From the NCBI GenBank assembly GCA_964566685.1, contig CAZMKB010000004.1, forward strand, positions 1-34,238: a stretch of 34,238 bases of DNA. The letters are read 5' to 3'. This document shows, one piece after another, positions 4,307-34,238 of the stretch (position 1 is the first letter of the stretch; every line of letters starts with the position of its first letter). The stretch comes from an uncultured Gemmatimonadota bacterium. GTDB taxonomy: Bacteria; Gemmatimonadota; CAZMKB01. The position numbers were made by a program, and so were the translations under genes. Under the pieces are notes generated by a model. The model was not told the DNA's origin. It worked only from the letters and a program-made list of their open reading frames with translations, and ran no database searches.

Positions 4307-4335
4307 TTGACACCTTCCGGCCATCTCATTAGAAT
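4307..4335 (+). promoter_or_regulatory. sigma70-type promoter candidate for the bEBP gene
   Basis: TTGACA (4307-4312), 17-nt spacer, TAGAAT (4330-4335), about 90 nt upstream of ATG 4427. Confidence 0.55.
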
Positions 4336-4426
4336 ATAAGAGGAAGGCTGCCAATATGGCAGGCCGCGGCCTGTCGTACGATGAATAATACGGGCTCAGA
4401 ACATTTGTGGGTGAGGAGGGCAGCAC

Positions 4427-5944
4427 ATGGTGGAAGAGAACGGCCATCTCATCGTCATCAGCCATCACGATCCGGCAGTCGCCCGCCGGATCAGGGATAT
4501 CCTCGGGGAGCGGGGGATTCCCGCCCAGCTCCTGTCCGGAATCGAAGAGCTCGGTCACCACCTGCTCGGGGAGGAGTGCGACCTGGTGATCCTCTCGGGC
4601 GGTCTCCGGGACGAACCAGTCAGGAAGATTCTCAAGAAATTCCGCCGCAGCTCCTTCCGCGGGGCTGTCATCGGGTTCTGGGAGTCAGGATCCATGGAGG
4701 AGGAGGAGCGGCTCGAGCAGCTCGGTGTCGACGAGGTTCTCACGAAGCCCCCCGACCCGAGGGAGGTATTTCTCGTCTCGAAACGGCTCCTCGAGCGGGA
4801 GGACCTCATCCAGCTCACCGGTCTCATCGGAACTTCCCGGGTGATGACCGAGCTCCTCGAAAAGGTCGAGCGATTCGCCCCGGTCAACTCCACGGTCCTG
4901 ATCACCGGAGAGAGCGGGACCGGAAAGGAGCTCGTCGCGAAAGCGCTTCACCGGCTGAGCCCCCGCAGTCACAAACCCTTCATCGCGGTGAACTGCGCCG
5001 CCCTGCCGGAGAGCCTCCTCGAGTCGGAACTCTTCGGGCATGAGAAGGGAGCGTTCACCGGTGCCACCGCCCTCCGGAAGGGGCGGTTCGAGATCGCTCA
5101 CGGCGGGACACTCTTTCTGGATGAGATCGGGGAGATGTCTCTCTCGACGCAGGTCCACCTGCTGAGGGTCCTCGAGGAGCGCGAGCTCATGCGTGTGGGG
5201 GGATCCACACCGATACCCGTCGACGTTCGGGTCGTCGTCGCCACGAACAGGGATATTCGTGAAGAGGTCTCCGCCGGGCGTTTCAGGCGCGACCTGTACT
5301 ACCGGATCAAGGTCCTGATGATCGACGTCCCGCCGCTCCGGGAACGCAGGGAGGACATCCCGCTCCTGGTGAACAAGTTCGTGCGTGAGTTCTGCGAGGA
5401 GAACAGGAGGAGCTTCGCCGGCCTGACCGACGAGGCGCTCGAAGTCCTGGTCAACTATGACTGGCCGGGCAATGTGCGCGAGCTCAGAAATCTGATCGAG
5501 AGCATGCTCGTTCTCTCGCCGGATCACAAGATCAAGCCGTCGGACATTCCCGAGCACATCTTCAAGCGGGGCGATCCCCGGCGGCTCCTGCCCATGCAGG
5601 TCCTCCCCGAGATTCCCGAAGGCAGGAGATTCGAGGCCATTCTCAACGCGCTCCTCGAGATCAAGCACGACGTCGACGAGATCAAGGAAGCCATGCCGGT
5701 GAGGAAGGCCGGCGAGGTCGTTCCGGAATCGGAGGATCGGGAGTTTCCCGGCGGAGAGCCGCGATACCGGGAAGGCGACGGTTACATCAAAATCGTGCCG
5801 GGAACGCCGCTCGAAGAGGTCGAGAAGATCCTCATCGAGGCGACTCTCGACATGGTCGGAGGAAACAGGAGAATGGCATCCGAATTGCTCGGTATCGGAG
5901 AGCGGACTCTCTACCGGAAGATCAAGAACCATCAGCTCACCTGA
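4427..5944 (+). CDS. Sigma54-dependent transcriptional activator (NtrC-family bEBP) with degenerate N-terminal receiver-like domain and C-terminal Fis-type HTH
   Basis: SD GTGAGGAGGG (4411-4420). AAA+ Walker A GESGTGKE, Walker B TLFLDEIGE, sigma54-contact loop GAFTGA, RRDLYYRI arginine-finger region, C-terminal HTH NRRMASELLGIGERTLYRKI. The N-terminal ~120 aa has a CheY-like pattern but lacks the acidic pocket (see findings). Confidence 0.93.
   Translation: MVEENGHLIVISHHDPAVARRIRDILGERGIPAQLLSGIEELGHHLLGEECDLVILSGGLRDEPVRKILKKFRRSSFRGAVIGFWESGSMEEEERLEQLGVDEVLTKPPDPREVFLVSKRLLEREDLIQLTGLIGTSRVMTELLEKVERFAPVNSTVLITGESGTGKELVAKALHRLSPRSHKPFIAVNCAALPESLLESELFGHEKGAFTGATALRKGRFEIAHGGTLFLDEIGEMSLSTQVHLLRVLEERELMRVGGSTPIPVDVRVVVATNRDIREEVSAGRFRRDLYYRIKVLMIDVPPLRERREDIPLLVNKFVREFCEENRRSFAGLTDEALEVLVNYDWPGNVRELRNLIESMLVLSPDHKIKPSDIPEHIFKRGDPRRLLPMQVLPEIPEGRRFEAILNALLEIKHDVDEIKEAMPVRKAGEVVPESEDREFPGGEPRYREGDGYIKIVPGTPLEEVEKILIEATLDMVGGNRRMASELLGIGERTLYRKIKNHQLT
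5874..5889 (+). promoter_or_regulatory. sigma54-type -24/-12 promoter candidate (TGGCAT-N5-TTGCT) upstream of the FG-GAP gene
   Basis: TGGCAT (5874-5879), ccgaa, TTGCT (5885-5889), with GG/GC spacing as in the RpoN consensus TGGCAC-N5-TTGCW. Lies inside the 3' end of the bEBP gene, 64 nt before ATG 5953. Confidence 0.45.
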
Positions 5945-8123: not shown

Positions 8124-9806
8124 GTGGCTCCGGTGATGAACGGCACATACTTTCTGTCGAGTGTCGAGATCCTGACGAAGAACGACAAGGAGAGCACGTT
8201 CCACAACTGGGAATCGCTTCACAGCAGCCGTCACAAGGAACTGCTCAGCATAATTGACAGCTACACCCTCAAACCGGGAGTCGAAACCCGCGGTGTGGAC
8301 GAATTCTACATCAACTTCGGCTTCATCGACCAGGCCGCGATCTACCACATCGACGTCGACAAAATCAAGGTCCGTGAGGCGACGGAGGGTGAATGTCAGC
8401 CGGTCAAAACCAGCGGCTGCGGAGATCCCCATGCCGTAACGGATGAATGGAACCGGGCCGCCCGGGAGGTCATCCCTTCGTTCCCCTTCTTCGACGCCTC
8501 CGAAAAGAGCAAACAGGTCGAGGAAAGCGGGTACGGAACTTCGTGGGACTACTCAGCGGTCATGGACGGCGGCGTCATTCCGATCTCCGACTGGGACGAC
8601 CCGAGCGTGTGGAACGCAGAGAAGGGAGGGAAACCTCATATCATCTTTTCCGCGAAGTGGCATCTATCCTATGACTACAACGGTCCGAAGACTCCTGAAA
8701 AGATGGCGGATCTGTACCAGAGGGTAAGGGACAATGCCAAAGCCTGCGGGGATCGGGGGTGGGATATCCGGGAAGGGGCGTTCGGAGAGAAGTCATGCAT
8801 CGGCTCGTACGCCCACAGGGGGACGATCGATCTCAGCATGGCGTCGGATCCCTACGGCGGGTACGGGAAACTGTACAAGTGCCTCCCCTGTGCAGACATC
8901 TATTCGGAGGTCTCGATACAGATTTTTGCACCACCATCACACGGGTCCCGGAACAAGCCGGAAGTGATCAGAGCCCTGAACGAGTCTGCCCGGGAATACG
9001 CACAGCAGATCGGTATGAAACTGATGGCAATCGCTGAGGGTGCACCGGTTGAACCTCCGCCGACGATGTTCGCGGATGGATCTGGTGAGGGCTCATTCTC
9101 CGGCGAAGGGGAGTCAACCGGTCAGGCCCAGGGAGGGAAAGTGCCTGTTCTGGCCGACGCGCAGGGCAGCGATTCCCGCCGGGGGTCGGGAGAAGATCTG
9201 CCCCTGATGGGATACCCGCAGACCGGCGTCCCGGATGTTCCTCCGGAGGACGACGTGGATCAGGTCATCGCCGATGCGATCGCTTCACTCAGGGAACAGG
9301 GTGGGGGAATGGAAGTCGAGGGAGCGGACGTTCCCACCGGGGGGGAGATGGAGGGGAGAGACTGGAAAACGGATGATCTGGCCTCCTATGAATCGGATGA
9401 CGACCTGCTCTTCGAGGGTGAAGAACTCATGGCCCAGGGTAGGTTTCGTGAAGCGGCGGAGGCATACGAGACAGCCATACGCCGGAATCCGGACAATCCG
9501 GAATACCGCGTTCGTTACGGAGACGTTCACATATTGCAGGGAAACTGGCGGGAAGCCGAGGTGGCCTACCGGAATGCAATCGAGATAGATTCTTCCAGGG
9601 CCGAGTACCACGCACTCCTTGGAGAATCCCTGGTTGAGCAGAGCAGGTGGAGGGAAGCCGAAGCGGCATATCGGGAAGCGATCCGCCTCGAGCCCGATCA
9701 CCCCGGGCACCACGGAATGCTCGGCCTGATCCTGATGGAGCAGGGAAGAGAACAGGAGGGTGAAGCTGCTCTTAAGAAAGCGGAAGAACTCGAATCACAG
9801 TGGTAA
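8124..9806 (+). CDS. Orphan protein with acidic low-complexity linker and C-terminal TPR repeats; same frame as 7599..8099
   Basis: Long ORF in the same frame as the upstream ORF (both starts are multiples of 3 apart). No SD before GTG 8124 or ATG 8136. About four TPR-like 34-aa repeats at the C-terminus (AEAYETAIRRNPDNPEY..., AEVAYRNAIEIDSSRAEY..., AEAAYREAIRLEPDHPGH...). D/E/G-rich linker at ~9060-9420. TAA stop. Confidence 0.6.
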   Translation: MAPVMNGTYFLSSVEILTKNDKESTFHNWESLHSSRHKELLSIIDSYTLKPGVETRGVDEFYINFGFIDQAAIYHIDVDKIKVREATEGECQPVKTSGCGDPHAVTDEWNRAAREVIPSFPFFDASEKSKQVEESGYGTSWDYSAVMDGGVIPISDWDDPSVWNAEKGGKPHIIFSAKWHLSYDYNGPKTPEKMADLYQRVRDNAKACGDRGWDIREGAFGEKSCIGSYAHRGTIDLSMASDPYGGYGKLYKCLPCADIYSEVSIQIFAPPSHGSRNKPEVIRALNESAREYAQQIGMKLMAIAEGAPVEPPPTMFADGSGEGSFSGEGESTGQAQGGKVPVLADAQGSDSRRGSGEDLPLMGYPQTGVPDVPPEDDVDQVIADAIASLREQGGGMEVEGADVPTGGEMEGRDWKTDDLASYESDDDLLFEGEELMAQGRFREAAEAYETAIRRNPDNPEYRVRYGDVHILQGNWREAEVAYRNAIEIDSSRAEYHALLGESLVEQSRWREAEAAYREAIRLEPDHPGHHGMLGLILMEQGREQEGEAALKKAEELESQW

Positions 9807-9910: not shown

Positions 9911-10474
9911 CTAGTACTTCGACTTCGCGTCCTTCCAGGTACGGATGACGTTCTCCCAGTTGCCGCTCTCGATCGACTTGTAGGTGAACGTGATGGGGAA
10001 CTCCAGGTCTATCTTCTCGGAGAACAGGTAGATGGCCATCTCGGGCGTGCCGTAGAATTTGAGGACCCGCTTGTCGAAGGTCTGGGAGTGGGGAATGATC
10101 CTTTCGGGTTTGTAGCGGTTTCCCTGCTGAAGGAGCTCGAACTCGGTCGGCTCGAAGTATGTCTCGGGCTCGGTCCGCCCCTGGAAGAGAACGAGAAATT
10201 CCTTCTGGTTCATGTCGCCGGTTATTTCCGGGTGGGCCTCGAGAATCTTCGTGTAGGTCCGCTTGGTGTCGACCGTCGTGTAACGGAGAATCGATTCGTC
10301 GAGCGGGGTGATCCTGATCCAGAGCCCCTCTCCCTCGAGCGTGATCGAGATGTCCTCGGTCTTCAGCTTTCCCGTCCCCTCTTCGGCCTGCGCCAGAAGG
10401 CCCGGTGCCGGAAGGAGGAGGAAGAAGAGTATCATGAGCGCGAGAGCGGTGAATGTCGTCTGCCGGTCTTTCAT
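9911..10474 (-). CDS. Orphan secreted protein (187 aa)
   Basis: ATG at 10474 is preceded by GAGGAGG (complement of 10481-10487). Signal peptide MKDRQTTFTALALMILFFLLLPAPGLLAQA. No family recognised. The track ORF start at 10543 is a TTG overlapping the engB stop and lacks an SD. Confidence 0.6.
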   Translation of the reverse strand: MKDRQTTFTALALMILFFLLLPAPGLLAQAEEGTGKLKTEDISITLEGEGLWIRITPLDESILRYTTVDTKRTYTKILEAHPEITGDMNQKEFLVLFQGRTEPETYFEPTEFELLQQGNRYKPERIIPHSQTFDKRVLKFYGTPEMAIYLFSEKIDLEFPITFTYKSIESGNWENVIRTWKDAKSKY

Positions 10475-10514
10475 TGTCTGACCTCCTCGGTGAGGCTCGA
10501 TTGAGTCTCCATAA

Positions 10515-10543
10515 TCATTAACTCCGCCCGCCCGAACTGTCAA
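10515..10543 (-). promoter_or_regulatory. sigma70-type promoter candidate for the 9911..10474 gene
   Basis: The minus strand reads TTGACA (10543-10538), 17-nt spacer, TAATGA (10520-15). The -35 overlaps the engB stop codon. Confidence 0.45.
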
Positions 10544-11139: not shown

Positions 11140-11916
11140 TCAGTGGGGATATGCGTGACCCCGCTGGGACGACACTTTCTCCGTTTTCGGCGCCTTCTCG
11201 ACCATGTCGGGGATCGCCACGGCCACGACTTCGTCCATCGTCCCCACCAGGATGATGTTCAGCTTCTTCTTCACTTCCGGAGGGAGGTCTTCAAGGTTTT
11301 TCTCGTTCCTCTTCGGAATGAGGAGCACCGTCGCTCCGGCACGCAGGGCCGCAACGGCCTTCTCCTTCAGCCCTCCAATGGGAAGGACCCGCCCGCGAAG
11401 TGTTATCTCTCCCGTCATCGCCACGTCCCTGCGGACCGGCAGTTTCAGGAGAGCCGATATCAGCGCCGTGGCGATGGCGATACCGGCGGACGGCCCGTCC
11501 TTGGGAGTGGCTCCTTCCGGGATGTGAACGTGGAGATCGTACTTCTTGTGAAAGTCGTCCTTCAGGCCGAAAACCGGAGAACGTGCCCTGATGTAGGAGA
11601 GCGCGGCTTCGGCCGATTCCTTCATGACATCGCCGAGCTTCCCCGTGAGACTCAGGTTGCCCTTGCCGGGCACGACGGAGACTTCGATCGACAGGATCTC
11701 GCCGCCGGCCTCGGTCCACGCCAGGCCGGTTGCCACACCGACCTCGTCGGCCTCACCGAGCTCCGTCTCGAAGTACTTGCCGGTGCCGAGGAGCTTCCTC
11801 ACCTGCTTCGGGGTTATCGCCGTCCTCTTCGACTCTCCCGCGGTGGCGACCTTCCTCGCGATCTTCCGGCAGACGGTGCTGATCTCGCGCTCGAGATTCC
11901 TGACGCCGGCCTCCCG
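11140..11916 (-). pseudogene. lon: Lon protease, C-terminal fragment (end of AAA+ module plus Ser-Lys proteolytic domain), out of frame with the N-terminal fragment
   Basis: This frame reads [23 protein letters not shown]...[17 protein letters not shown]...[19 protein letters not shown] (catalytic Ser motif)...[11 protein letters not shown]. The track ORF 11140..11802 begins at an internal GTG (Val in full-length Lon). Homology continues upstream in the same frame to ~11916. Confidence 0.88.
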
Positions 11917-13541
11917 CCGCTGATGATCGTCCCGATCGCGTTCCTGCTGAAGGACACCTTCTCCCCGCTGAGGCCATGAGCCTCGAGCTGCTTGGGAATG
12001 AGAAACCGCTTCGCGATCTCCACCTTTTCGCCTTCCAGATATCCCGGAAGCCGGATGACCTCCATCCGGTCGAGGAGGGCGGGGTGGATCGTATAGAGGA
12101 CGTTCGCCGTGGTGATGAAGAGCACCCTCGAGAGGTCGTAGTCGACCTCGAGGTAGTGGTCGCTGAACGCGTTGTTCTGTTCCGGGTCGAGCGCCTCGAG
12201 CAGCGCGGCGGAGGGATCTCCCCTGAAATCGACGGTCATCTTGTCGACCTCGTCGAGGAGCATGACGGGATTCACCGTCCCCGCACGTTTCATCGCCTGG
12301 ATCAGGCGGCCGGGAAGAGCGCCGATGTAGGTGCGCCGGTGCCCGCGAATCTCAGCCTCGTCCCTGATGCCCCCGAGCGAGATCCTGACGAATTTTCTCG
12401 AGAGAGCCCGGGCGATGGAGCGGCCGAGCGACGTCTTTCCGACTCCGGGAGGCCCCACGAGGCAGAGAATGGGACCCTTCATCCTGCCGACGAGCTTGAG
12501 GACCGAGATGTATTCGATGATCCGCTCCTTCGCCTTCTCGAGGCCGTAGTGGTCCTCGTCGAGAATCCTCGCGACCTCCTTCACCGACAGGTTGTCCTTC
12601 GTCCGCTTCTTCCAGGGGATCCCGAGCAGCCAGTCCAGGTAGTTCCTCGTGACGGTCGCTTCGGGCGAGAGCGGGGCCATTTTCGACAACTTTCTGATCT
12701 CCCTGTCGACCTTCTCCCGCACTTCCTTCGGCAGTCCCGCCGAGTCGGCTTTCTCCTGCAGCTCGATGATCTCGTCACCCTGATCCTCGGCGTCGCCGAG
12801 CTCCTTGTAGATGGCCTTCAGCTGCTCCTGCAGATAGAATTCCTTCTGGTTCTTGAGGACCTGTGTCTTGACCTCACCCTCGATCTTGCGCTCGAGCTTG
12901 AGGATTTCGATTTCGGATACCAGGATGCGGTTGATCTGCTCGAAGCCTTTGTAGAGCGTCTGCTTCTCAAGCAGCTCGACCTTGTCCGGGAGCTTGAGGA
13001 TGAGGTGACTCGAGATCAGGTACAGCAGGCGGCTGTTGTCGACGACGTTCTGCAGGGTGGTGAGCAACTCGTCGGGGAGCCGCTTGTTGAGCTTGACATA
13101 CTCTTCGAACAACCCCACGGCGCGCCGGGCGACCGCCTCGATTTTCTTGCCCTTCTCTTCGACCACCGGATAGAGCTCTATTTCAGCTTCCAGGAACTCC
13201 TCCTCCTGCGGGTATGAAATCGCTTTCGCACGCTCGATGCCCTCGATGAGAACCTTGATCGTGCCGTTCGGGAGCTTCACCATCTGGAGGATGCGCGAGA
13301 CGGTGCCGACGGAGTAGAGATCGGACGGCTCGGGCTCCGCTATGTCGCTCTCGAGCTGGGGGACCAGGAAGAGGAACTTGTCACCGAGCATGGCGTGCTC
13401 GAGCGCCGAAATGGAGGCCTCCCTGCCGACGAGGAGCGGGACCACCATGTTCGGGTAGATGACGACGTCGCGCAGCGGGATGGTGGGAAGAACTTCCTGT
13501 ATCTCCAGGTGTTCGCCGTCTTTTACGGTCGTGAGTGTCAT
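11814..13541 (-). pseudogene. lon: Lon protease, N-terminal substrate-binding domain plus AAA+ module, terminating prematurely after a frame disruption near 11911-11920
   Basis: IPLRDVVIYPNMVVPLLVGR (Lon N domain), Walker A GPPGVGKTSLGRSIA, Walker B MLLDEVDK. After ...[10 protein letters not shown] the translation degrades to Arg/Ser/Pro-rich sequence ([19 protein letters not shown]...) until TAA at 11814. ATG 13541 abuts the clpX stop (TAAATG). Confidence 0.9.
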
Positions 13542-16980: not shown

Positions 16981-18465
16981 TTACCACTCGGGTTCTATGA
17001 CGGTGAAGTGACGGGTGACACCGGTCTCCTCTGACCGCGAAACGTAGAGGAGAATTTCACTCTCTCCCCGGAGCCGGGACAGCCTCTCCTCCAGATCTTC
17101 TACTGAGGCAACAACCGTGCCGCGTTCGATTTCGAGAAGGACGTCACCGGCCCTGAGCGGATGGGGGCTCGCGCGTGCGGCCGGACCGTCGGGATCGACG
17201 TCCGCGATCGCCACTCCTCTCTGCTCGCTCATGCCGTGGATCTCCATCACTGCGTCCGACACGTTCTCGAATCGAATCCCGAAGGGGGACTCCGCCGGGA
17301 TCTCCGGTGAACGGGCGACCGTCTCCTCTTTGGACGGTCTCTCCATCAGATACACCGTCCGTGTCAGCCTCTCTCCGTCACGAATGATGCCGACCGTGAC
17401 CCCGTCTCCCGGCTCGTACCGGGCGATGAGCGTCTGCAGCTCATTCACTTTCGACACGTCGACCCCGTTGATGTCGACGATGACATCACCCTCTTCGATT
17501 CCCGCTTCGCGGGCCGGGCTGTCGTCCGGGACGAACCCCTCCACGACGACACCGCGCGCCTCGGGGAGGGACAGCTCCCCCGCGCGCTCCGGTGTCACGT
17601 TCCGGATGGAGACACCGAGTATCGGCCGGATGACTCTGCCGTGTTCGATGATGTCACCGGCCACCCTCCTGGCGAGACTGATCGGGATTGCGAACCCGTA
17701 CCCCTGGTAGAACCCGGTGTTGGTGGAGATCGCAGTATTGATGCCGATCACTTCTCCGTTCAGGTTGATGAGCGGTCCGCCGGAGTTCCCGGGATTGATC
17801 GCCGCATCCGTCTGGATGAAGCTCTCGATGCTGTAGCTCCCGGGAATGATGTCGATGTTCCTGCCCTTTGCACTGATGATTCCCGCCGTGACGGTGAAGG
17901 GGAGCCGCATGGGATTTCCCACGGCCAGAACCCACTCCCCGACTTGCGATCGGTCCGAATCCCCGAGCTTCGCGGTGTGGAGACCTTTCCGGTCGATCTT
18001 GATGACCGCCAGGTCGGTGGTCGGATCCCGCCCGATGACTTCGGCGGAGTGGATTTCATTCTCGTAGATCGAGACCTGGATCTCCTCGGCCTTCTCGACG
18101 ACGTGATTGTTCGTGAGGATGTAGCCGTCTTCCCTGAAGATCACTCCGCTCCCGAGGCCTTCCGTTTCGAACTGCTCCTCCTCGCGGAAACGCCTGAAAA
18201 AATCTTCGAACGGCCCGCGGAAGAGCGGGGCCTCGTCGATCGGCGGATGCTCGATCACGCGGCGGGCGCTTATGTTCACGACGAACGGCGTCACCTGTCT
18301 GGCGATTTCCACGAACGTGTTGCCGGGAGGAATCCCGGTGACGGATGGTTGCGTCGGGGTCTCCTCCTCCGTCGCCGCACGGGCGTGCGGAGTGTCCGCG
18401 AGGGGGGCCATGGTGAGAAAACAGAGGATGAGCCCGCTGATGGGGCCCATCCTCCTGCGTACCAT
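16981..18465 (-). CDS. htrA: Periplasmic serine endoprotease HtrA/DegP/DegQ family with two PDZ domains
   Basis: Catalytic triad contexts TNNHVV, DLAVIKI, GNSGGPLIN, followed by two PDZ-like regions. Start chosen at ATG 18465 (MVRRRMGPISGLILCFLTMAPLA signal), 28 nt after the dnaK stop. The track start at 18681 would overlap dnaK and encodes basic low-complexity sequence. Confidence 0.92.
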   Translation of the reverse strand: MVRRRMGPISGLILCFLTMAPLADTPHARAATEEETPTQPSVTGIPPGNTFVEIARQVTPFVVNISARRVIEHPPIDEAPLFRGPFEDFFRRFREEEQFETEGLGSGVIFREDGYILTNNHVVEKAEEIQVSIYENEIHSAEVIGRDPTTDLAVIKIDRKGLHTAKLGDSDRSQVGEWVLAVGNPMRLPFTVTAGIISAKGRNIDIIPGSYSIESFIQTDAAINPGNSGGPLINLNGEVIGINTAISTNTGFYQGYGFAIPISLARRVAGDIIEHGRVIRPILGVSIRNVTPERAGELSLPEARGVVVEGFVPDDSPAREAGIEEGDVIVDINGVDVSKVNELQTLIARYEPGDGVTVGIIRDGERLTRTVYLMERPSKEETVARSPEIPAESPFGIRFENVSDAVMEIHGMSEQRGVAIADVDPDGPAARASPHPLRAGDVLLEIERGTVVASVEDLEERLSRLRGESEILLYVSRSEETGVTRHFTVIEPEW

Positions 18466-18493: not shown

Positions 18494-20416
18494 TCACGAC
18501 TCTTTGTTTTCTTCGTCAACCACTTCGTATTCTGCATCGACGACGTCTTCTTCCTGCTTCGCCTGTCCGCCTTCCTCCCCGGCTTCCCCTGCACCTTCTG
18601 CGGACTGCGCCTGCTGCTGTTGCTGCTGGTACATCGTGCTCGCGACCTGGTGCCAGGTGTTCTGGAGGTCCTCCGTGGCACGGTTTATCTCGTTCATGTC
18701 AGCACCCTTGAGCGCGCTCCTGGTGCGCTCGATCGCAGCTTCGATCTTCGCCTTATCCTCGGCTCCGACCTTGTCTCCGAGCTCCTTCAGCTGCTTCTCC
18801 GTCTGGTAGACCATCGAGTCCGCCTTGTTCCGGGCGTCGATCTCCTGCTTCCGCTGCTGGTCCTCGGCCGCGTGGGCATCGGCATCCTTCACCATGCGAT
18901 CGATCTCGGCCTCGCTCAGACCGCTCGAAGCCTCGATCTTGATCGACTGCTCCTTGCCGGTGGCTTTGTCCTTCGCCGACACGTTGAGGATTCCGTTCGC
19001 GTCGATGTCGAATGTGACTTCGATCTGCGGAACACCACGGGGAGCCGGAGGGATTCCGGTGAGCTGGAACCGTCCGATCGTCTTGTTGCCGGCGGCCATC
19101 TCGCGCTCGCCCTGCAGCACGTGTATCTCGACGGTCGTCTGATTGTCCTCTGCCGTGCTGAAGACCTCGCTCTTCTTCGTGGGGATGGTCGTGTTCCGGT
19201 CGATGAGCTTCGTGAACACTCCTCCCAGGGTTTCGATACCGAGCGAGAGCGGCGTCACGTCGAGCAGCAGCACATCCTTGACCTCGCCGGCCAGGACCCC
19301 GCCCTGAATCGCGGCGCCTATCGCAACGACCTCGTCGGGGTTGACGCCCCTGTGCGGCTCCCTGCCGAAGAGCTCCTTGACCAGCTCCTGCACCTTCGGC
19401 ATTCTCGTCGCGCCGCCGACCAGGATGACTTCGTCGATGTCGTCCTTGGTCATGCCGGCGTCTTCGAGCGCTTTCCGGCACGGTCCCACCGTTCTCTGGA
19501 TGAGATCGTCGACCAGCTCTTCCAGCTTGGCCCTCGAAAGCGTCAGGTTCAGATGCTTGGGTCCGCTCGCGTCGGCCGTGATGAACGGAAGATTGATATC
19601 CGTTTTCGGAACGGTCGACAGCTCGCACTTCGCTTTCTCGGCCGCTTCCTTGAGCCGCTGCAGGGCCATCGGGTCCTTCTTCAGATCGATCCCCTCCTGT
19701 TTCTTGAACTCGGCCACCAGCCAGTCTATGATCCTCTGATCGAAATCATCTCCACCGAGATGAGTGTCACCGTTGGTGGCCTTGACTTCGAAGACTCCGT
19801 CACCGAGCTCGAGTATGGAGATGTCGAAGGTACCGCCACCGAGATCGAACACGGCTATCTTCTCGTCCTTCTTCTTGTCGAGTCCGTAGGCGAGCGATGC
19901 GGCAGTGGGTTCGTTGATGATCCGCAGCACCTCGAGTCCCGCTATCTTTCCCGCATCCTTCGTCGCCTGGCGCTGGCTGTCGTTGAAGTACGCCGGTACG
20001 GTAATGACCGCCTGCGTGACCTTCTGTCCGAGATAGTCCTCGGCGGTCTGTTTCATTTTCTGGAGAATCATGGCGGAAATCTCGGGAGGCGTGTGTTCCT
20101 TGCCGCCGGCCTTCACCCGCGCATCTCCGTTGGGCCCCGACACGACCTCGTAGGGGACCTTCTGTATCTCCTCGGAAACCTCTCCGTACTTCCTTCCCAC
20201 GAATCGTTTTATCGAGAAGACGGTGTTCTCCGGATTGGTGATGGCCTGCCGTTTTGCTACCTGGCCGGTCAGGCGTTCACCTTCCTTGCTGAATGCCACG
20301 ACCGACGGTGTCGTCCGACTCCCCTCGGCATTGGCTATGACGACCGGATCGCCGCCTTCCATGACAGCCACACAGGAATTGGTCGTACCCAGGTCGATTC
20401 CGATCACTTTACTCAT
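18494..20416 (-). CDS. dnaK: Molecular chaperone DnaK (Hsp70)
   Basis: [18 protein letters not shown]..., [23 protein letters not shown]-terminal lid and [14 protein letters not shown] tail. SD GAGGTG lies 6 nt before ATG 20416. Confidence 0.98.
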
Positions 20417-20483
20417 GTAATCACCTCGTCATGTCTGGTATTTCATGATTTTCGTACTTCGACGCAGGATCACGTTCGAGAGG

Positions 20484-20499
20484 AGCAAGGTCTGTGCCA
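20484..20499 (-). promoter_or_regulatory. sigma54-type -24/-12 promoter candidate (TGGCAC-N5-TTGCT) facing dnaK
   Basis: The minus strand reads gTGGCACagaccTTGCTc (20499 down to 20484). The motif ends 68 nt upstream of the dnaK ATG, giving a predicted leader of ~57 nt. Confidence 0.5.
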
Positions 20500-20740
20500 C
20501 AAAAAGGCCTTGATTTTTCCTTTGCGAGAACTATAAGAGAGAGAGGGGCTTTCGGACATTCGCCGGCATCGGCTCCCCATCGCCGTGGGCGATGGGGGAA
20601 AGCGTGGTGTGTCAGACTGGCAGTATTCTCCCGGAAATGCTGTCAATGCGGCATCCTGGCCGGTCGATCCTGCGATCATGGCAGGATGATCACGTGCGAA
20701 AAACTGTGAGGCACATTTTCTGGGGTGAGAATCTGTGAAG

Positions 20741-20756
20741 TGGCATGAGAATTGCC
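20741..20756 (+). promoter_or_regulatory. sigma54-type -24/-12 motif (TGGCAT-N5-TTGCC) facing the glycan locus, embedded in a 9-bp hairpin
   Basis: TGGCAT (20741-20746), gagaa, TTGCC (20752-20756). Part of the perfect inverted repeat GAAGTGGCA-N7-TGCCACTTC (20737-20761). Confidence 0.35.
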
Positions 20757-20970
20757 ACTTCCCTTGTTCGAGGTGATCGCGATCCGCAGCCGGCTGGCGA
20801 GTGCAGTGCTTTCATCCCGGACCGTCTGGGACGTGATCGTAGGGAGGCGACGTGAAATCGCCTCTCCTGGCAAAAGCAGATGGAACCGTGGTACCGTACG
20901 CCGGATTCGCACACGGGGAGTTGGGAACAAACTCCACGGAGGCGAGGAAGGACGCGGGGGATCTTTTAAC

Positions 20971-20999
20971 TTGACAAACCCGCCGATTTCTGGTACAAT
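20971..20999 (+). promoter_or_regulatory. Near-consensus sigma70 promoter (extended -10) for the glycan locus
   Basis: TTGACA (20971-20976), 17-nt spacer ending in TGG, TACAAT (20994-20999), ~120 nt upstream of ATG 21122. Confidence 0.7.
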
Positions 21000-21121: not shown

Positions 21122-22006
21122 ATGAAAAAGAGGCTCCGGGAAAAAGACAGGGTGAGCACCCTGCACACACTCCTGAAGAAGGAACGGGACGGGTGGCGTG
21201 ACTGGGTAGGGCCCGGAGAAGGTTTTCGCGACATCCAGGCACGGTATCATCAGGATCTGGTTGCACAGGAATTCGGACTGCCTCGTGAGGACGCCCTCTC
21301 CGCGATCTCCCGGCTGTCCTACCGCAGGGCGTTTTCTCTTTCGTGGAGACGCTCACTGAAGCGCCTGATGGACGTCACCGTCGCCTCCCTGCTTCTCCTG
21401 CTCTCGGCTCCGCTCTTCTTCCTCATCGCGGTACTCATCAAGATCGACTCCGGCGGGCCCGTCTTCTTCACACAGCAGCGGATCGGCCTGAACCGGCGAC
21501 GGACCGATCGGAGAGGGACGGAGAGTATCGGGAACAAGACGACCTTCATTTTCAACCGGAGAACCGGTGATCGTCGTGTTCACGACCTGAAGGGAAAGCC
21601 TTTCAAGATCTTCAAGTTCCGGACGATGAAGACGTCGAGCCCGAGGTACGACTTCTCTCCGAAAACCCACAACGACGAACGACTGACACGGTTCGGACGG
21701 TTTCTGCGGAAGGTCTCCCTCGACGAGCTGCCCCAGCTCATCAATGTGATCAAGGGAGACATGAGCCTCGTCGGTCCACGCCCCGAGATGCCCTACATCG
21801 TCGTCGGATACAACAAGGTTCACGCGATCAGACTGCAGATGAAACCGGGAGTGACCGGCATCTGGCAGCTCCGTGCATCCCGGGACAAGCCGATCCACGA
21901 GAACCTCATCTTCGATCTCCAGTACATCAGGGACTGGTCGCTCTGGCTCGATGTCAAACTGCTCTATCAGACCGTGAAGTGGATGTTTCACTGTATCAAT
22001 GTATGA
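21122..22006 (+). CDS. Polyprenyl-phosphate sugar-1-phosphate transferase (bacterial sugar transferase / WbaP-EpsL-type priming enzyme)
   Basis: Membrane hairpin KRLMDVTVASLLLLLSAPLFFLIAVLIKIDSGGPVFF, then KIFKFRTM, DERLTRFGRFLRKVSLDELPQLINVIKGDMSLVGPRP, all family signatures. Contains an unusual Arg-rich insertion. Confidence 0.9.
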   Translation: MKKRLREKDRVSTLHTLLKKERDGWRDWVGPGEGFRDIQARYHQDLVAQEFGLPREDALSAISRLSYRRAFSLSWRRSLKRLMDVTVASLLLLLSAPLFFLIAVLIKIDSGGPVFFTQQRIGLNRRRTDRRGTESIGNKTTFIFNRRTGDRRVHDLKGKPFKIFKFRTMKTSSPRYDFSPKTHNDERLTRFGRFLRKVSLDELPQLINVIKGDMSLVGPRPEMPYIVVGYNKVHAIRLQMKPGVTGIWQLRASRDKPIHENLIFDLQYIRDWSLWLDVKLLYQTVKWMFHCINV

Positions 22007-29005: not shown

Positions 29006-30840
29006 GGGAGTGGAACGCAGACGCCGGAGAACGTCTCATGCTCGGTGTCATCGTGTTCGCGGCAGCCGCGCTCAGGATCTACGGCATCGAATTCGGCCTG
29101 CCGCTCCACTACCACATCGACGAGACGCGCATCATGGACCGGGTCATGGTCATGGTGACGACCGGCGATCTCAATCCGCACTTCTTCAACTATCCGTCTT
29201 TTCTGTTCTACTTCATCTCGGCGCTCGTGCTCGCCTACTACGCTCTCCACTTCGTTCCGTTCGCGCTCGGCAACCTGTTCGAAGGCCGTATCCCGAGCCC
29301 GTCTGCGTTCCGAGAGGCATTCCAGGCCAACGACGCAACACTGTACCTGCTTGCGAGAACTTCCATAGCCGTCTTCGGCATCCTGACGGTCGTTCTCGTT
29401 TATTTCCTCGCGAAGAGGCTCCGCTTCTCGAAGAACGCAGCGCTCTTCTCGGCACTCGGCGTGGCGCTCATGCCTCTCCATGTCATTGAGTCGCACTACA
29501 TCAAGCAGGAAGTACCGATGACCTTCTTCATGCTGCTCGCTTTCTTCCTGGCGGTGCGCGGCGAGGATTCATCGCGGCGGAGGGCGTCGACCTTCGCGGC
29601 TCTCGCTGCCGGGGCGGCCGCCTCGGTGAAATACAACGGCATTCTGGCTCTGACGGTGCTCCCGGCCCTGTTCAGGAGGGAAGGGCGTTTCCGCCTCTCG
29701 AGCTTCTTCGGCTGGCCCGTGATACGGGCCGTTCTGATCGCCGTCGGGACGTTTCTCCTCATCACCCCCTTCGCGGTTCTCGATTCCGGGCAGTTCGTGA
29801 AGGACGTCGGATTCGAACTGTTCCACGTCGCCGAGATGGGCCACCATGCGTTCGACCTGAACGGCGAAGGCATCGTGTTTCACAGATTCCTCTATCAGAT
29901 TCTGGCGGCATACCCGTTCTCGCTCGGAATCCCGCTCTATCTCCTGAGCCTTGCCGGCCTCGGCTGTGCGATCGGGAGGAGAGAACCCGGCTTCCTCTGG
30001 ATTCTCTTCTTCGCACTTCCCTATTTCCTGCTCACAGCGAGCATGAAGGTCGTCTTCCTCAGGTACTCTCTGCCCGTCGCGGTGATTCTCTGCATGGCGG
30101 CAGGTTACGGCATATCGGCTCTCGGGGAGGGCGCGCCCGGTCGCATCGGAAAGTGGGCCGTGAGGGCGGCGGCCGTTCTGGTCGTCGTGTACACCGCCTC
30201 CTTCACCTGGACGATCGTCCGGCACATGCCGCGGGGAAACACGACGCTCGACGATGCCCTGTCGTGGCTCGATCGAAACGCCCCGCCGGGCAGTCGTGTT
30301 GCACGCACGCTCTTCACGCCGCCGCTCTCGGGGCGCCCGTACGAGGTCACGATCATGAGGCCTCATCATTTCCGGTCCGAATGGCTCGAAGCGGAGCGTC
30401 CGGATGTCATCGTGGCGTCGGCCCTGGTGACGGTCGGGTTCGAGCGCGGTGGAACAGGAATGGAGGGGGGGAGGGAGTTTCTCGAGGACCTCCGCTCTCA
30501 GCGCGGCGACTACCGCCGTGTGGCGAAGTTCGAGCGGGATTTTCTGCAGAAGGATCTGTTCGAACGCATCGATCCGATCCTTTCGGAAACCTTCATGCCG
30601 GCCGTCGAGATCTTCGCCAGATACGGCTGTCCGGCACGGGATGCCGGAGCTGAAAACCGCCGGAGCAGACTGAGACGGCATGATCTCCATTCCCGGAGTC
30701 AGGCAGAATTCTTGCGTGTTTTCCCTCCCGGGAGTACGTTGACAGTGATGTATTCCCGGGGCGGGATCGGCTCTGTTGCGGGAGAAGAATGGGGAACCGG
30801 CGGGCCGGCCGGATTTCCGGTGAGATCCGGAAGTTATTGA
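29002..30840 (+). CDS. GT-C fold membrane glycosyltransferase (GT39/ArnT/PMT_2-like)
   Basis: ATG 29002 overlaps the PIG-L stop (ATGA) and is preceded by GGGGAGGA. First-loop acidic motif YHIDETRIMD, about 11+ hydrophobic segments, then a soluble C-terminal region. The last ~70 aa are low-complexity, so the C-terminus is less certain. Confidence 0.7.
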   Translation: MREWNADAGERLMLGVIVFAAAALRIYGIEFGLPLHYHIDETRIMDRVMVMVTTGDLNPHFFNYPSFLFYFISALVLAYYALHFVPFALGNLFEGRIPSPSAFREAFQANDATLYLLARTSIAVFGILTVVLVYFLAKRLRFSKNAALFSALGVALMPLHVIESHYIKQEVPMTFFMLLAFFLAVRGEDSSRRRASTFAALAAGAAASVKYNGILALTVLPALFRREGRFRLSSFFGWPVIRAVLIAVGTFLLITPFAVLDSGQFVKDVGFELFHVAEMGHHAFDLNGEGIVFHRFLYQILAAYPFSLGIPLYLLSLAGLGCAIGRREPGFLWILFFALPYFLLTASMKVVFLRYSLPVAVILCMAAGYGISALGEGAPGRIGKWAVRAAAVLVVVYTASFTWTIVRHMPRGNTTLDDALSWLDRNAPPGSRVARTLFTPPLSGRPYEVTIMRPHHFRSEWLEAERPDVIVASALVTVGFERGGTGMEGGREFLEDLRSQRGDYRRVAKFERDFLQKDLFERIDPILSETFMPAVEIFARYGCPARDAGAENRRSRLRRHDLHSRSQAEFLRVFPPGSTLTVMYSRGGIGSVAGEEWGTGGPAGFPVRSGSY

Positions 30841-33324: not shown

Positions 33325-34238
33325 ATGGATAGAATCGTTGTCCTGGGAGCGGGACCGACCGGTCTCGGAGCGGGGTACAGGCTCCGGGAGAAGGGACACG
33401 ACGACTGGGACGTGTACGAGATGAGTCCCCACGTCGGCGGCCTGTCGGCCAGTTTCCGGGACGAACGGGGGTTCACCTGGGACATCGGCGGCCACATCAT
33501 CTTTTCCCACTATCCCTATTACGACAGGATCATCGAGGAGCTGCTCGGAGCGGATGTCTGTGCCCACGAGCGGGAGAGCTGGGTGCGGTTGATGGGCTCG
33601 TTCGTCAGGTATCCGTTCCAGAACAACTTCCACTTTCTCCCCGAAGACGTCGTCCTGGAGTGCATCATGGGTCTCATCGAGGCCCGGGAGAACAACCGGA
33701 AGGTCCGTACCTTCGAAGACTGGATTCTGAAGATGTTCGGTGAGGGGATAGCGAAGTATTTCCTCGCTCCCTACAATCTCAAGGTCTGGTCTCATCCCCT
33801 GACGATGATGGACTGCAACTGGATAGGGGAGAGGGTGAGCGTCGTCGACATCAGGCATGTCATGCGGAACATCGTGTACCGGAAGGATGACAGCTCCTGG
33901 GGGCCGAACAACCAGTTCCTGTTTCCCCTCCACGGGGGCACCGGGGGCCTGTTCGAGGCCTTCGTCCCGGTTCTGGGCGATCGGCTGCACCTTTCGAGCC
34001 GGGCGACGGCGGTTTCGCTCGAGAACCGGACCGTCGGATTCGAGAACGGCGAAGAGACGTCGTTCAATGCCTTGCTGTCGACCATTCCAGCCGACGAGCT
34101 GGTCCGTATCACCGATTCCGCACCGGCGGAGGTCCGGGAGGCGGCGGACTGCCTGAAGAAGGCGGGTGGCTATATCGTCGGGGGGGGTATCGCGCGCACC
34201 TGTCCGAGTGACAAGAACTGGATGTACTTTCCCGAGGG
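33325..34238 (+). CDS. FAD-dependent oxidoreductase, UDP-galactopyranose mutase-like (3' end truncated by the window)
   Basis: Not in the ORF track because no stop is reached. My translation from ATG 33325 (SD GGAGGAGGAAGGA at 33307-33319) gives MDRIVVLGAGPTGLGAGYRL (Rossmann GxGxxG)...VGGLSASF...WDIGGHIIF...FLAPYNLKVWSHP...WIGERV...LFPLHGGTGGLFEA, open to the end of the window. Confidence 0.75.
   Translation, partial: MDRIVVLGAGPTGLGAGYRLREKGHDDWDVYEMSPHVGGLSASFRDERGFTWDIGGHIIFSHYPYYDRIIEELLGADVCAHERESWVRLMGSFVRYPFQNNFHFLPEDVVLECIMGLIEARENNRKVRTFEDWILKMFGEGIAKYFLAPYNLKVWSHPLTMMDCNWIGERVSVVDIRHVMRNIVYRKDDSSWGPNNQFLFPLHGGTGGLFEAFVPVLGDRLHLSSRATAVSLENRTVGFENGEETSFNALLSTIPADELVRITDSAPAEVREAADCLKKAGGYIVGGGIARTCPSDKNWMYFPE

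Follow-up and report, generated by a model that had tools for sequence, protein, structure and literature searches.

How the dnaK gene of an uncultured Gemmatimonadota bacterium is switched on is the question raised by contig CAZMKB010000004.1 (assembly GCA_964566685.1), in which a motif of the sigma-54 (RpoN) -24/-12 type precedes dnaK and the adjoining protease gene htrA on the minus strand. An earlier reading of the letters, made without database searches (the sequence-only reading), had placed dnaK-htrA behind a sigma-54 promoter. The whole 34,238-nucleotide contig (the window) was analysed together with 80 related dnaK loci, and that proposal is now strongly supported by the conservation of the box, by activator-type sites upstream of it and by a bacterial enhancer-binding protein (bEBP) with a GAFTGA motif that is encoded in the window. 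The box is very likely to be a genuine sigma-54 promoter from which the dnaK transcript would start at about position 20473, and most likely also drives htrA. The features on which this interpretation is built are the following.

20484–20499, minus strand: sigma-54 -24/-12 promoter element TGGCACagaccTTGCT, the sole exact core match, conserved in relatives

20473, minus strand: predicted transcription start, 12 nt 3' of the C in the -12 GC, following standard sigma-54 geometry

18494–20416, minus strand: dnaK, 640 aa, PF00012 HSP70 (E 3.5e-279)

16981–18465, minus strand: htrA/degP-type periplasmic serine protease gene, 494 aa, with Trypsin_2 and two PDZ domains and a signal peptide

Across the box the minus strand reads gTGGCACagaccTTGCTc, consisting of TGGCAC (20499–20494), a spacer (20493–20489) and TTGC (20488–20485), with the GG (20498–20497) and GC (20486–20485) doublets one helical turn apart. 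The C of TTGC is 68 nt from the dnaK ATG; coordinates, strand and distance agree with those given earlier. With both strands of the window scanned, no other exact match to TGGCAC-N5-TTGC was found. Dinucleotide shuffling predicts 0.04 exact core matches for a sequence of this kind, at least one match being found in four of 100 shuffles, and when one mismatch is allowed the window contains four matches against 0.95 expected. With a position weight matrix (PWM) that approximates the published sigma-54 compilation, the dnaK box scores 18.2 bits. The predicted dnaK leader is 57 nt long and contains a Shine–Dalgarno sequence, GAGGTGA, at 20427–20421. An RNA thermometer or riboswitch in this leader was rejected, there being no Rfam match and its folding being ordinary (z = -0.38).

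The box is conserved in relatives. The encoded DnaK is 82% and 78% identical to the proteins of two Gemmatimonadota metagenome-assembled genomes (MAGs), with identities of 70–78% to its counterparts in Eisenbacteria, Zixibacteria, Ignavibacteria, KSB1 and many Gemmatimonadales; the window is treated here as part of a deep-branching lineage resembling Gemmatimonadota. The region from -200 to -15 upstream of dnaK was scanned in 78 of the 80 related loci, and a box of at least 10 bits was found on the sense strand in 41 loci and on the antisense strand in three, a score reached by 2.6% of random 185-nt segments; at 12 bits or more the counts are 28 and 0. A search of relatives for the motif, which had been put forward as a check on the promoter, has turned out in its favour. 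The conserved boxes lie 45–105 nt before the dnaK ATG and usually take the form YGGYAYG-N4-TTGCY. In the nearest relative, L001, the box reads TGGCATaatccTTGCC and is placed 77 nt before the ATG, and in the alignment of the two intergenic regions it is among the few conserved blocks in otherwise diverged sequence.

Nine loci without a dnaK-proximal box (L004–L006, L008–L012 and L015, from Zixibacteria, Ignavibacteria, Eisenbacteria and others) carry a box of 14.5–19.2 bits before an HSP20 gene that directly precedes dnaK, and in related loci boxes are also found before GrpE and DnaJ-domain genes. The window box is likely to belong to a sigma-54 proteostasis regulon comprising dnaK, hsp20, grpE and dnaJ, which would be common to Gemmatimonadota and neighbouring phyla of the Fibrobacteres–Chlorobi–Bacteroidetes (FCB) type.

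The inclusion of htrA is suggested by the arrangement of the two genes. As noted in the sequence-only reading, htrA starts 28 nt after the dnaK stop, and since no terminator was found in this 28-nt gap htrA is probably on the dnaK transcript in this genome. The HtrA N-terminus, MVRRRMGPISGLILCFLTMAPLADTPHARA, is a clear signal peptide, and the order dnaK then htrA is kept in most Gemmatimonadota loci. Within the signal-peptide codons, 10 nt after the htrA ATG, a hairpin with a 13-bp stem is followed by GTTTTCTC (18423–18455, minus strand); it may be a chance product of GC-rich sequence or a dnaK/htrA attenuator.

A sigma-54 promoter calls for an activator, and a candidate binding site became visible when the promoters were aligned by their boxes, in the form of an upstream palindrome, CTGYCA-N3-TGRCAG. 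Counted as the exact pattern TGYC-N5-GRCA within 220 nt upstream of chaperone-gene boxes, it occurs upstream of 31 of 60 boxes, compared with 1.8% of random 220-nt segments. When the sequences were anchored on the palindrome only, with no PWM, information peaks appeared at GG and TTGC with the canonical spacing; the box is therefore not a product of PWM selection. Three such sites, two of them designated here as putative upstream activating sequences (UAS), precede the dnaK box.

20610–20622: UAS-2, activator-type palindrome, minus strand TGCCAGTCTGACA, centred at about -143 from the predicted start and 117 nt before the box

20641–20653: UAS-1, activator-type palindrome, minus strand TGCCGCATTGACA, centred at about -174 and 148 nt before the box

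20669–20685: third palindrome, imperfect, CCTGCCATGATCGCAGG, differing from TGYC-N5-GRCA at one position and centred at about -204

UAS-1 and UAS-2 are spaced 31 bp apart. The L001 counterpart of UAS-2, TGCCGTCCTGACA, stands at an equal distance of 117 nt before the box, and the third palindrome coincides with a conserved block of the window and L001, where it reads CCTGCCACCATCGCAG. In the window, L001, Zixibacteria, Ignavibacteria and 'Cytophagia'-type MAGs the sites precede the box by 84–148 nt, the classical enhancer distance, and frequently form pairs 31–40 nt apart. A further exact TGYC-N5-GRCA, the fourth of the window, TGTCCGAGTGACA, is found at 34201–34213, near the contig end and 211 nt upstream of an unannotated open reading frame (ORF; 33990–33274, minus strand), with no sigma-54 box near it. 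In L019, L037, L046 and L050 the interval from the upstream palindromes to the box contains a hairpin with compensatory stem changes and a T-run (GGCACAT...ATGTGCC TGTTTT), which looks like a terminator shielding the promoter against read-through.

A protein that might read these palindromes is encoded on the plus strand of the same contig.

4427–5944, plus strand: bEBP, candidate cognate activator, with PF00158 (E 2.9e-73), AAA lid PF25601 and HTH_8 PF02954

4307–4362, plus strand: promoter and putative operator of the bEBP gene, with TTGACA at 4307–4312, a 17-nt spacer, TAGAAT at 4330–4335 and then a palindrome

The bEBP consists of an aspartate-less receiver-like N-terminal domain (DLVILSGGL), an AAA+ sigma-54 interaction domain with an intact GAFTGA motif and a Fis-type helix–turn–helix (HTH). 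Canonical receivers in other metagenomic bEBPs read DLVxxD at the corresponding motif. The position of the phospho-acceptor (Asp54 of NtrC) is occupied by Ser in the window protein, and by Thr in 101 and Ser in 15 of 117 full-length orthologues, in which the motif is (V/I)LTGGL and Lys104 is kept; the protein is therefore not a canonical phospho-regulated regulator of the NtrC type. It reaches no NCBIfam equivalog cut-off. Full-length orthologues of about 50% identity are found throughout Gemmatimonadota. A metagenome scan with the bEBP, which was dominated by the generic AAA+ peptide FLDEIGEM, yielded only four orthologues, L085–L087 and L091. Homologues near dnaK in L018, L033, L035 and L044 match in the AAA+ core only and were set aside as non-orthologous.

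The link between this protein and the palindrome is suggested by location and by synteny. A perfect copy, CTGCCAATATGGCAG, lies at 4348–4362, directly after the promoter of the bEBP gene and 65 nt before its ATG, which is an autorepression-type position for a putative operator. In seven of ten orthologous loci (the window, L081, L082 and L165–L168, that of L168 being before a MoCF-bEBP operon) the palindrome overlaps the start region of a TTGACA-N17-TAnnAT promoter that serves the bEBP gene or operon. The bEBP gene is convergent with a (lon)-clpX-clpP-tig(-htrA) cluster in L082, L084 and L165–L168, the stretch retrieved including htrA for four of the six, and in the window and L001/L081 it shares a contig with dnaK. 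On these grounds we infer that the bEBP binds the palindrome, represses its own gene and activates dnaK, and we propose it with moderate confidence as the best candidate activator of the dnaK promoter.

Three further observations concern the surroundings of this gene. A box-like sequence, TGGCATCCGAATTGCT (15.8 bits), lies at 5874–5889 on the plus strand, 64 nt before an FG-GAP gene, and recurs in L081 at 5436; it falls within the codons MASELL of the bEBP HTH, so that coding constraint could explain its conservation, and it was set aside as a promoter. A 210-aa ORF at 9911–10543 (minus strand) has no Pfam or NCBIfam match. Genes of 190–225 aa without a Pfam match occupy the same place, convergent with and adjoining the bEBP gene, in L082 and L165–L168.

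These elements can be assembled into a mechanism. RNA polymerase containing sigma-54 would wait on 20499–20484 as a closed complex, and the bEBP, bound to the CTGYCA-N3-TGRCAG sites at 20610–20685, 110–200 bp upstream, would loop to the promoter and open it through ATP hydrolysis, allowing transcription from about 20473 through dnaK into htrA. Through the perfect palindrome copy the bEBP would also repress its own sigma-70-type promoter. The inducing signal is presumably proteotoxic or envelope stress, as is suggested by the membership of the regulon (dnaK, hsp20, grpE and dnaJ, and htrA here). This explanation as a whole, comprising the promoter, the palindromes, the bEBP candidate and the shared regulon, is one that we consider probable.

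A wider generalization is much more tentative. In Gemmatimonadota, Zixibacteria, Ignavibacteria, KSB1, Eisenbacteria and Bacteroidota-like MAGs, the core heat-shock regulon (dnaK, hsp20, grpE and dnaJ) might possibly be under the control of one dedicated, previously undescribed bEBP, with an aspartate-less LTGGL receiver, that reads CTGYCA-N3-TGRCAG, represses itself and senses proteotoxic stress without a histidine kinase. Were this so, sensing could proceed, for example, by chaperone titration or Ser/Thr phosphorylation, and the bEBP would fill the role that sigma-32, HrcA or HspR has elsewhere.

Several points weigh against the proposed promoter and activator pairing. The 34 kb window contains no rpoN gene; in favour of the promoter, the supplement of PMC12316311 lists rpoN of Gemmatimonas aurantiaca and of Gemmatirosa kalamazoonensis. 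If an essential chaperone depended on a sigma-54 promoter only, basal activator activity would be required, and there may be an additional, unrecognised housekeeping promoter. Over the whole window the palindrome is not significantly enriched, with four occurrences against 1.9 expected. In 14 Gemmatimonadales loci (L020, L021, L022, L031, L039, L052, L053, L055–L057, L068, L071, L072 and L080) it is centred at about -42, exactly 15 nt before the box, often with an extra TGCCA half-site just upstream; a fixed site at this position is atypical for an enhancer and could reflect a different binding protein or a repressive role. The operator is absent from three of the ten orthologous loci, L083 and L084 among them, and from the four more distant orthologues L085–L087 and L091. 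The proposed association of the bEBP with the palindrome is drawn from location and synteny. Finally, the gap between dnaK and htrA measures 100–400 nt in most relatives, and co-transcription of htrA is therefore not general.

The alternative that survives best accepts the box and reassigns the palindromes, which would be operators of a separate protein, such as a heat-shock repressor, that also represses the bEBP gene, with dnaK activated by another bEBP or by one that does not bind DNA. At about -42 the palindrome abuts the sigma-54 footprint, an arrangement more typical of a repressor or co-regulator, and at the bEBP gene it occupies a classical repressor position. However, autorepression through their own sites is common among bEBPs, NtrC being an example, and a repressor would not be effective from 84–148 nt upstream of the box, the normal place for a bEBP enhancer and the one in which the sites stand in the window, in L001 and in the Zixibacteria, Ignavibacteria and 'Cytophagia' MAGs. 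The HTH_8 domain of the bEBP is moreover intact, and synteny of its gene with the regulated cluster is conserved. A separate palindrome-binding protein is for these reasons unlikely.

A second alternative leaves most dnaK transcription to an unrecognised housekeeping promoter, or to one of the extracytoplasmic function (ECF) or sigma-32-like type, the sigma-54 box being auxiliary and stress-only, or vestigial. The requirement for DnaK at all temperatures in most bacteria speaks for such a promoter, and a weak sigma-32-like match exists, formed by CCCCAT at 20597–20592 and CTGACA (9/12, with a 12–13 nt spacer). This best match to CTTGAA-N13-17-CCCCATnT nevertheless carries three mismatches in 12 and a short spacer. 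Its CCCCAT segment is not conserved in L001, which lacks the whole palindrome region around it and retains the box and the activator-type palindromes. The region in question, a perfect GC-rich palindrome, CCCCATCGCC-CAC-GGCGATGGGG, without a T-run, does lie at 20575–20597 as had been described, between the activator sites and the promoter. A scan of 20417–20760 gave no sigma-70-type promoter on the dnaK strand, although promoters of this type are plainly recognisable elsewhere in the lineage. TTGACA at about 20645, which the sequence-only reading had offered beside the CCCCAT element as another possible origin of the transcript, is contained in UAS-1 as the right half of an activator-type palindrome and was rejected as a promoter element; neither suggestion is borne out.

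Classical heat-shock elements fare no better. The controlling inverted repeat of chaperone expression (CIRCE; TTAGCACTC-N9-GAGTGCTAA) has no match with up to five mismatches in the region upstream of the window dnaK and none with up to four mismatches within 400 nt upstream in the 80 related loci. For the HspR-associated inverted repeat (HAIR; CTTGAGT-N7-ACTCAAG), no match with up to three mismatches was found upstream of dnaK, the lone match in the window being at 29485, far from the gene. Control by CIRCE, HAIR or sigma-32 was accordingly rejected, nothing credible having emerged from the window scans or from the related dnaK upstream regions, and the earlier statement that CIRCE and HAIR are missing and that only a weak sigma-32-like string is present holds. 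The sigma-54 box, on the other hand, is the dominant conserved feature upstream of dnaK (41 of 78 loci), with no rival candidate conserved, which makes a predominant housekeeping or ECF/sigma-32-like promoter quite improbable. That the motif is a chance match without promoter function is hardly credible, since a box of the kind that shuffled windows occasionally produce would not be expected to combine the right strand and ATG distance with conservation in dozens of genomes whose intergenic sequences have otherwise diverged and with independent recovery by palindrome anchoring.

The sigma-54 promoter and its bEBP candidate have counterparts in better known systems. In Escherichia coli, dnaK is sigma-32 dependent, and sigma-54 drives ibpB and, through the bEBP PspF, pspA; PspF acts independently of phosphorylation and autoregulates through its own sites, but lacks an N-terminal regulatory domain and is controlled by the binding of PspA. 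In Myxococcus xanthus, HsfA/HsfB reportedly control the heat-shock gene lonD from a sigma-54 promoter through an NtrC-type bEBP, as described by Ueki and Inouye in 2002; HsfA is said to have a partner kinase and to accept phosphate as a canonical response regulator does, and it acts on the gene of a Lon protease, not on dnaK.

Closer precedents come from the FCB superphylum. In Flavobacterium psychrophilum a sigma-54 motif (SM4) is present at the mapped starts of dnaK, groES-groEL, grpE-dnaJ, htpG, lon, clpB and skp, genes that form one co-expression cluster (B254) devoted to protein quality control and envelope stress; three bEBPs were noted, but the activator was left unassigned, and an enhancer site is not among the features described (Guerin et al., 2021, ISME Commun; PMC9723704). 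The present locus resembles that system in the -24/-12 motif before dnaK, in its position within the FCB superphylum and in the sharing of a sigma factor by cytoplasmic and periplasmic quality-control genes, and the boxes before several chaperone genes (HSP20, GrpE and DnaJ-domain) in related loci recall cluster B254. It differs in belonging to another phylum and in that a candidate bEBP and a palindrome as its site are proposed here; and, unlike lon of F. psychrophilum, the window lon, as well as clpP, clpX and tig, has no upstream box. Predicted sigma-54 promoters are also enriched before DnaK, DnaJ, GrpE, GroEL/ES, IbpA, ClpB and Lon in Bacteroidota and Planctomycetota, in a study that names neither an activator nor an upstream site and in which Gemmatimonadota appear only in the supplementary list of sigma-54 proteins (aRpoNDB; Carrera-Reyna et al., 2025, PLoS One; PMC12316311).

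[quoted passage not shown] This operon is also reported to possess a sigma-66 promoter, which HrcA/CIRCE controls, and a sigma-28 promoter in its interior, and the activator is the two-component regulator CtcC/AtoC (PMC8762339). The window differs in that its dnaK lacks CIRCE and has neither hrcA nor grpE in the operon, and in that the candidate activator lacks the phospho-acceptor Asp.

In view of F. psychrophilum, of the predictions in Bacteroidota and Planctomycetota and of Chlamydia, control of the main Hsp70 by a bEBP can no longer be called unusual, as it had been initially. Since the same wiring is documented in related Bacteroidota, the dnaK promoter is an expected extension of published work. 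The palindrome and the aspartate-less bEBP, by contrast, are not described in the literature searched, which is an incomplete set, and the regulator and its predicted binding site appear to be undescribed. Chaperone switching outside Proteobacteria, Firmicutes and Actinobacteria is poorly understood. Mapped sigma-54 chaperone promoters are on record for one Flavobacterium, and predicted ones for Bacteroidota and Planctomycetota, with no activator or enhancer sequence assigned there, and the window extends this wiring to Gemmatimonadota. Its value lies less in the promoter itself than in a testable pairing of regulator and enhancer, which makes heat-shock sensing in bacteria of the FCB group experimentally answerable.

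The palindromes upstream of dnaK may serve a second promoter facing in the opposite direction.

20741–20756, plus strand: probable divergent sigma-54 box TGGCATgagaaTTGCC, 15.8 bits, sharing the palindromes and directed toward a Bac_transf/polysaccharide operon

From the predicted start of this box the palindromes are at about -90, -120 and -151. The core of the box is unchanged in L001, where the same Bac_transf gene (70% identical) is likewise divergent. Transcription from this box would pass through about 350 nt of leader before reaching the polysaccharide operon, or would yield a non-coding RNA; a conserved small ORF downstream of the box was considered and rejected, none having been found. 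On the same strand, a strong sigma-70-type promoter, TTGACA-N17-TACAAT with an upstream TG (11/12), lies at 20971–20999 and is conserved in L001; the Bac_transf gene (at 21122) follows after about 120 nt. Tandem sigma-54 and sigma-70 promoters may therefore serve the operon.

Beyond htrA the minus strand encodes tRNA-Leu, tig, clpP, clpX, lon in two frames and a GTPase gene; none of lon, clpP, clpX and tig is preceded by an upstream box in the window. Neither grpE nor dnaJ is present in the window, in keeping with the earlier remark that they do not adjoin dnaK, and groESL, htpG and clpB lie outside the sequence analysed. A box-like sequence within the 3' end of htrA, CGGCACGGTTGTTGCC (13.4 bits; 17107–17122, minus strand), has a counterpart in L001, CGGCATGGAAGTTGCT at 9293–9308, in the same codon position, with the residues GMEVA there and GTVVA in the window. 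Seen in these two genomes only, it may allow tRNA-Leu, tig, clpP, clpX and lon to be transcribed from an internal promoter. The window lon is split into 11814–13541 (N-domain and AAA) and 11140–11802 (Lon_C), both on the minus strand and in differing frames, and the L165 orthologue is one 802-aa gene; the split is a frameshift, an assembly error or a pseudogene. The GC content of the window is about 60%, and an M6 peptidase encoded in it ends in a sorting tail of the type IX secretion system (T9SS) type, which fits the FCB group.

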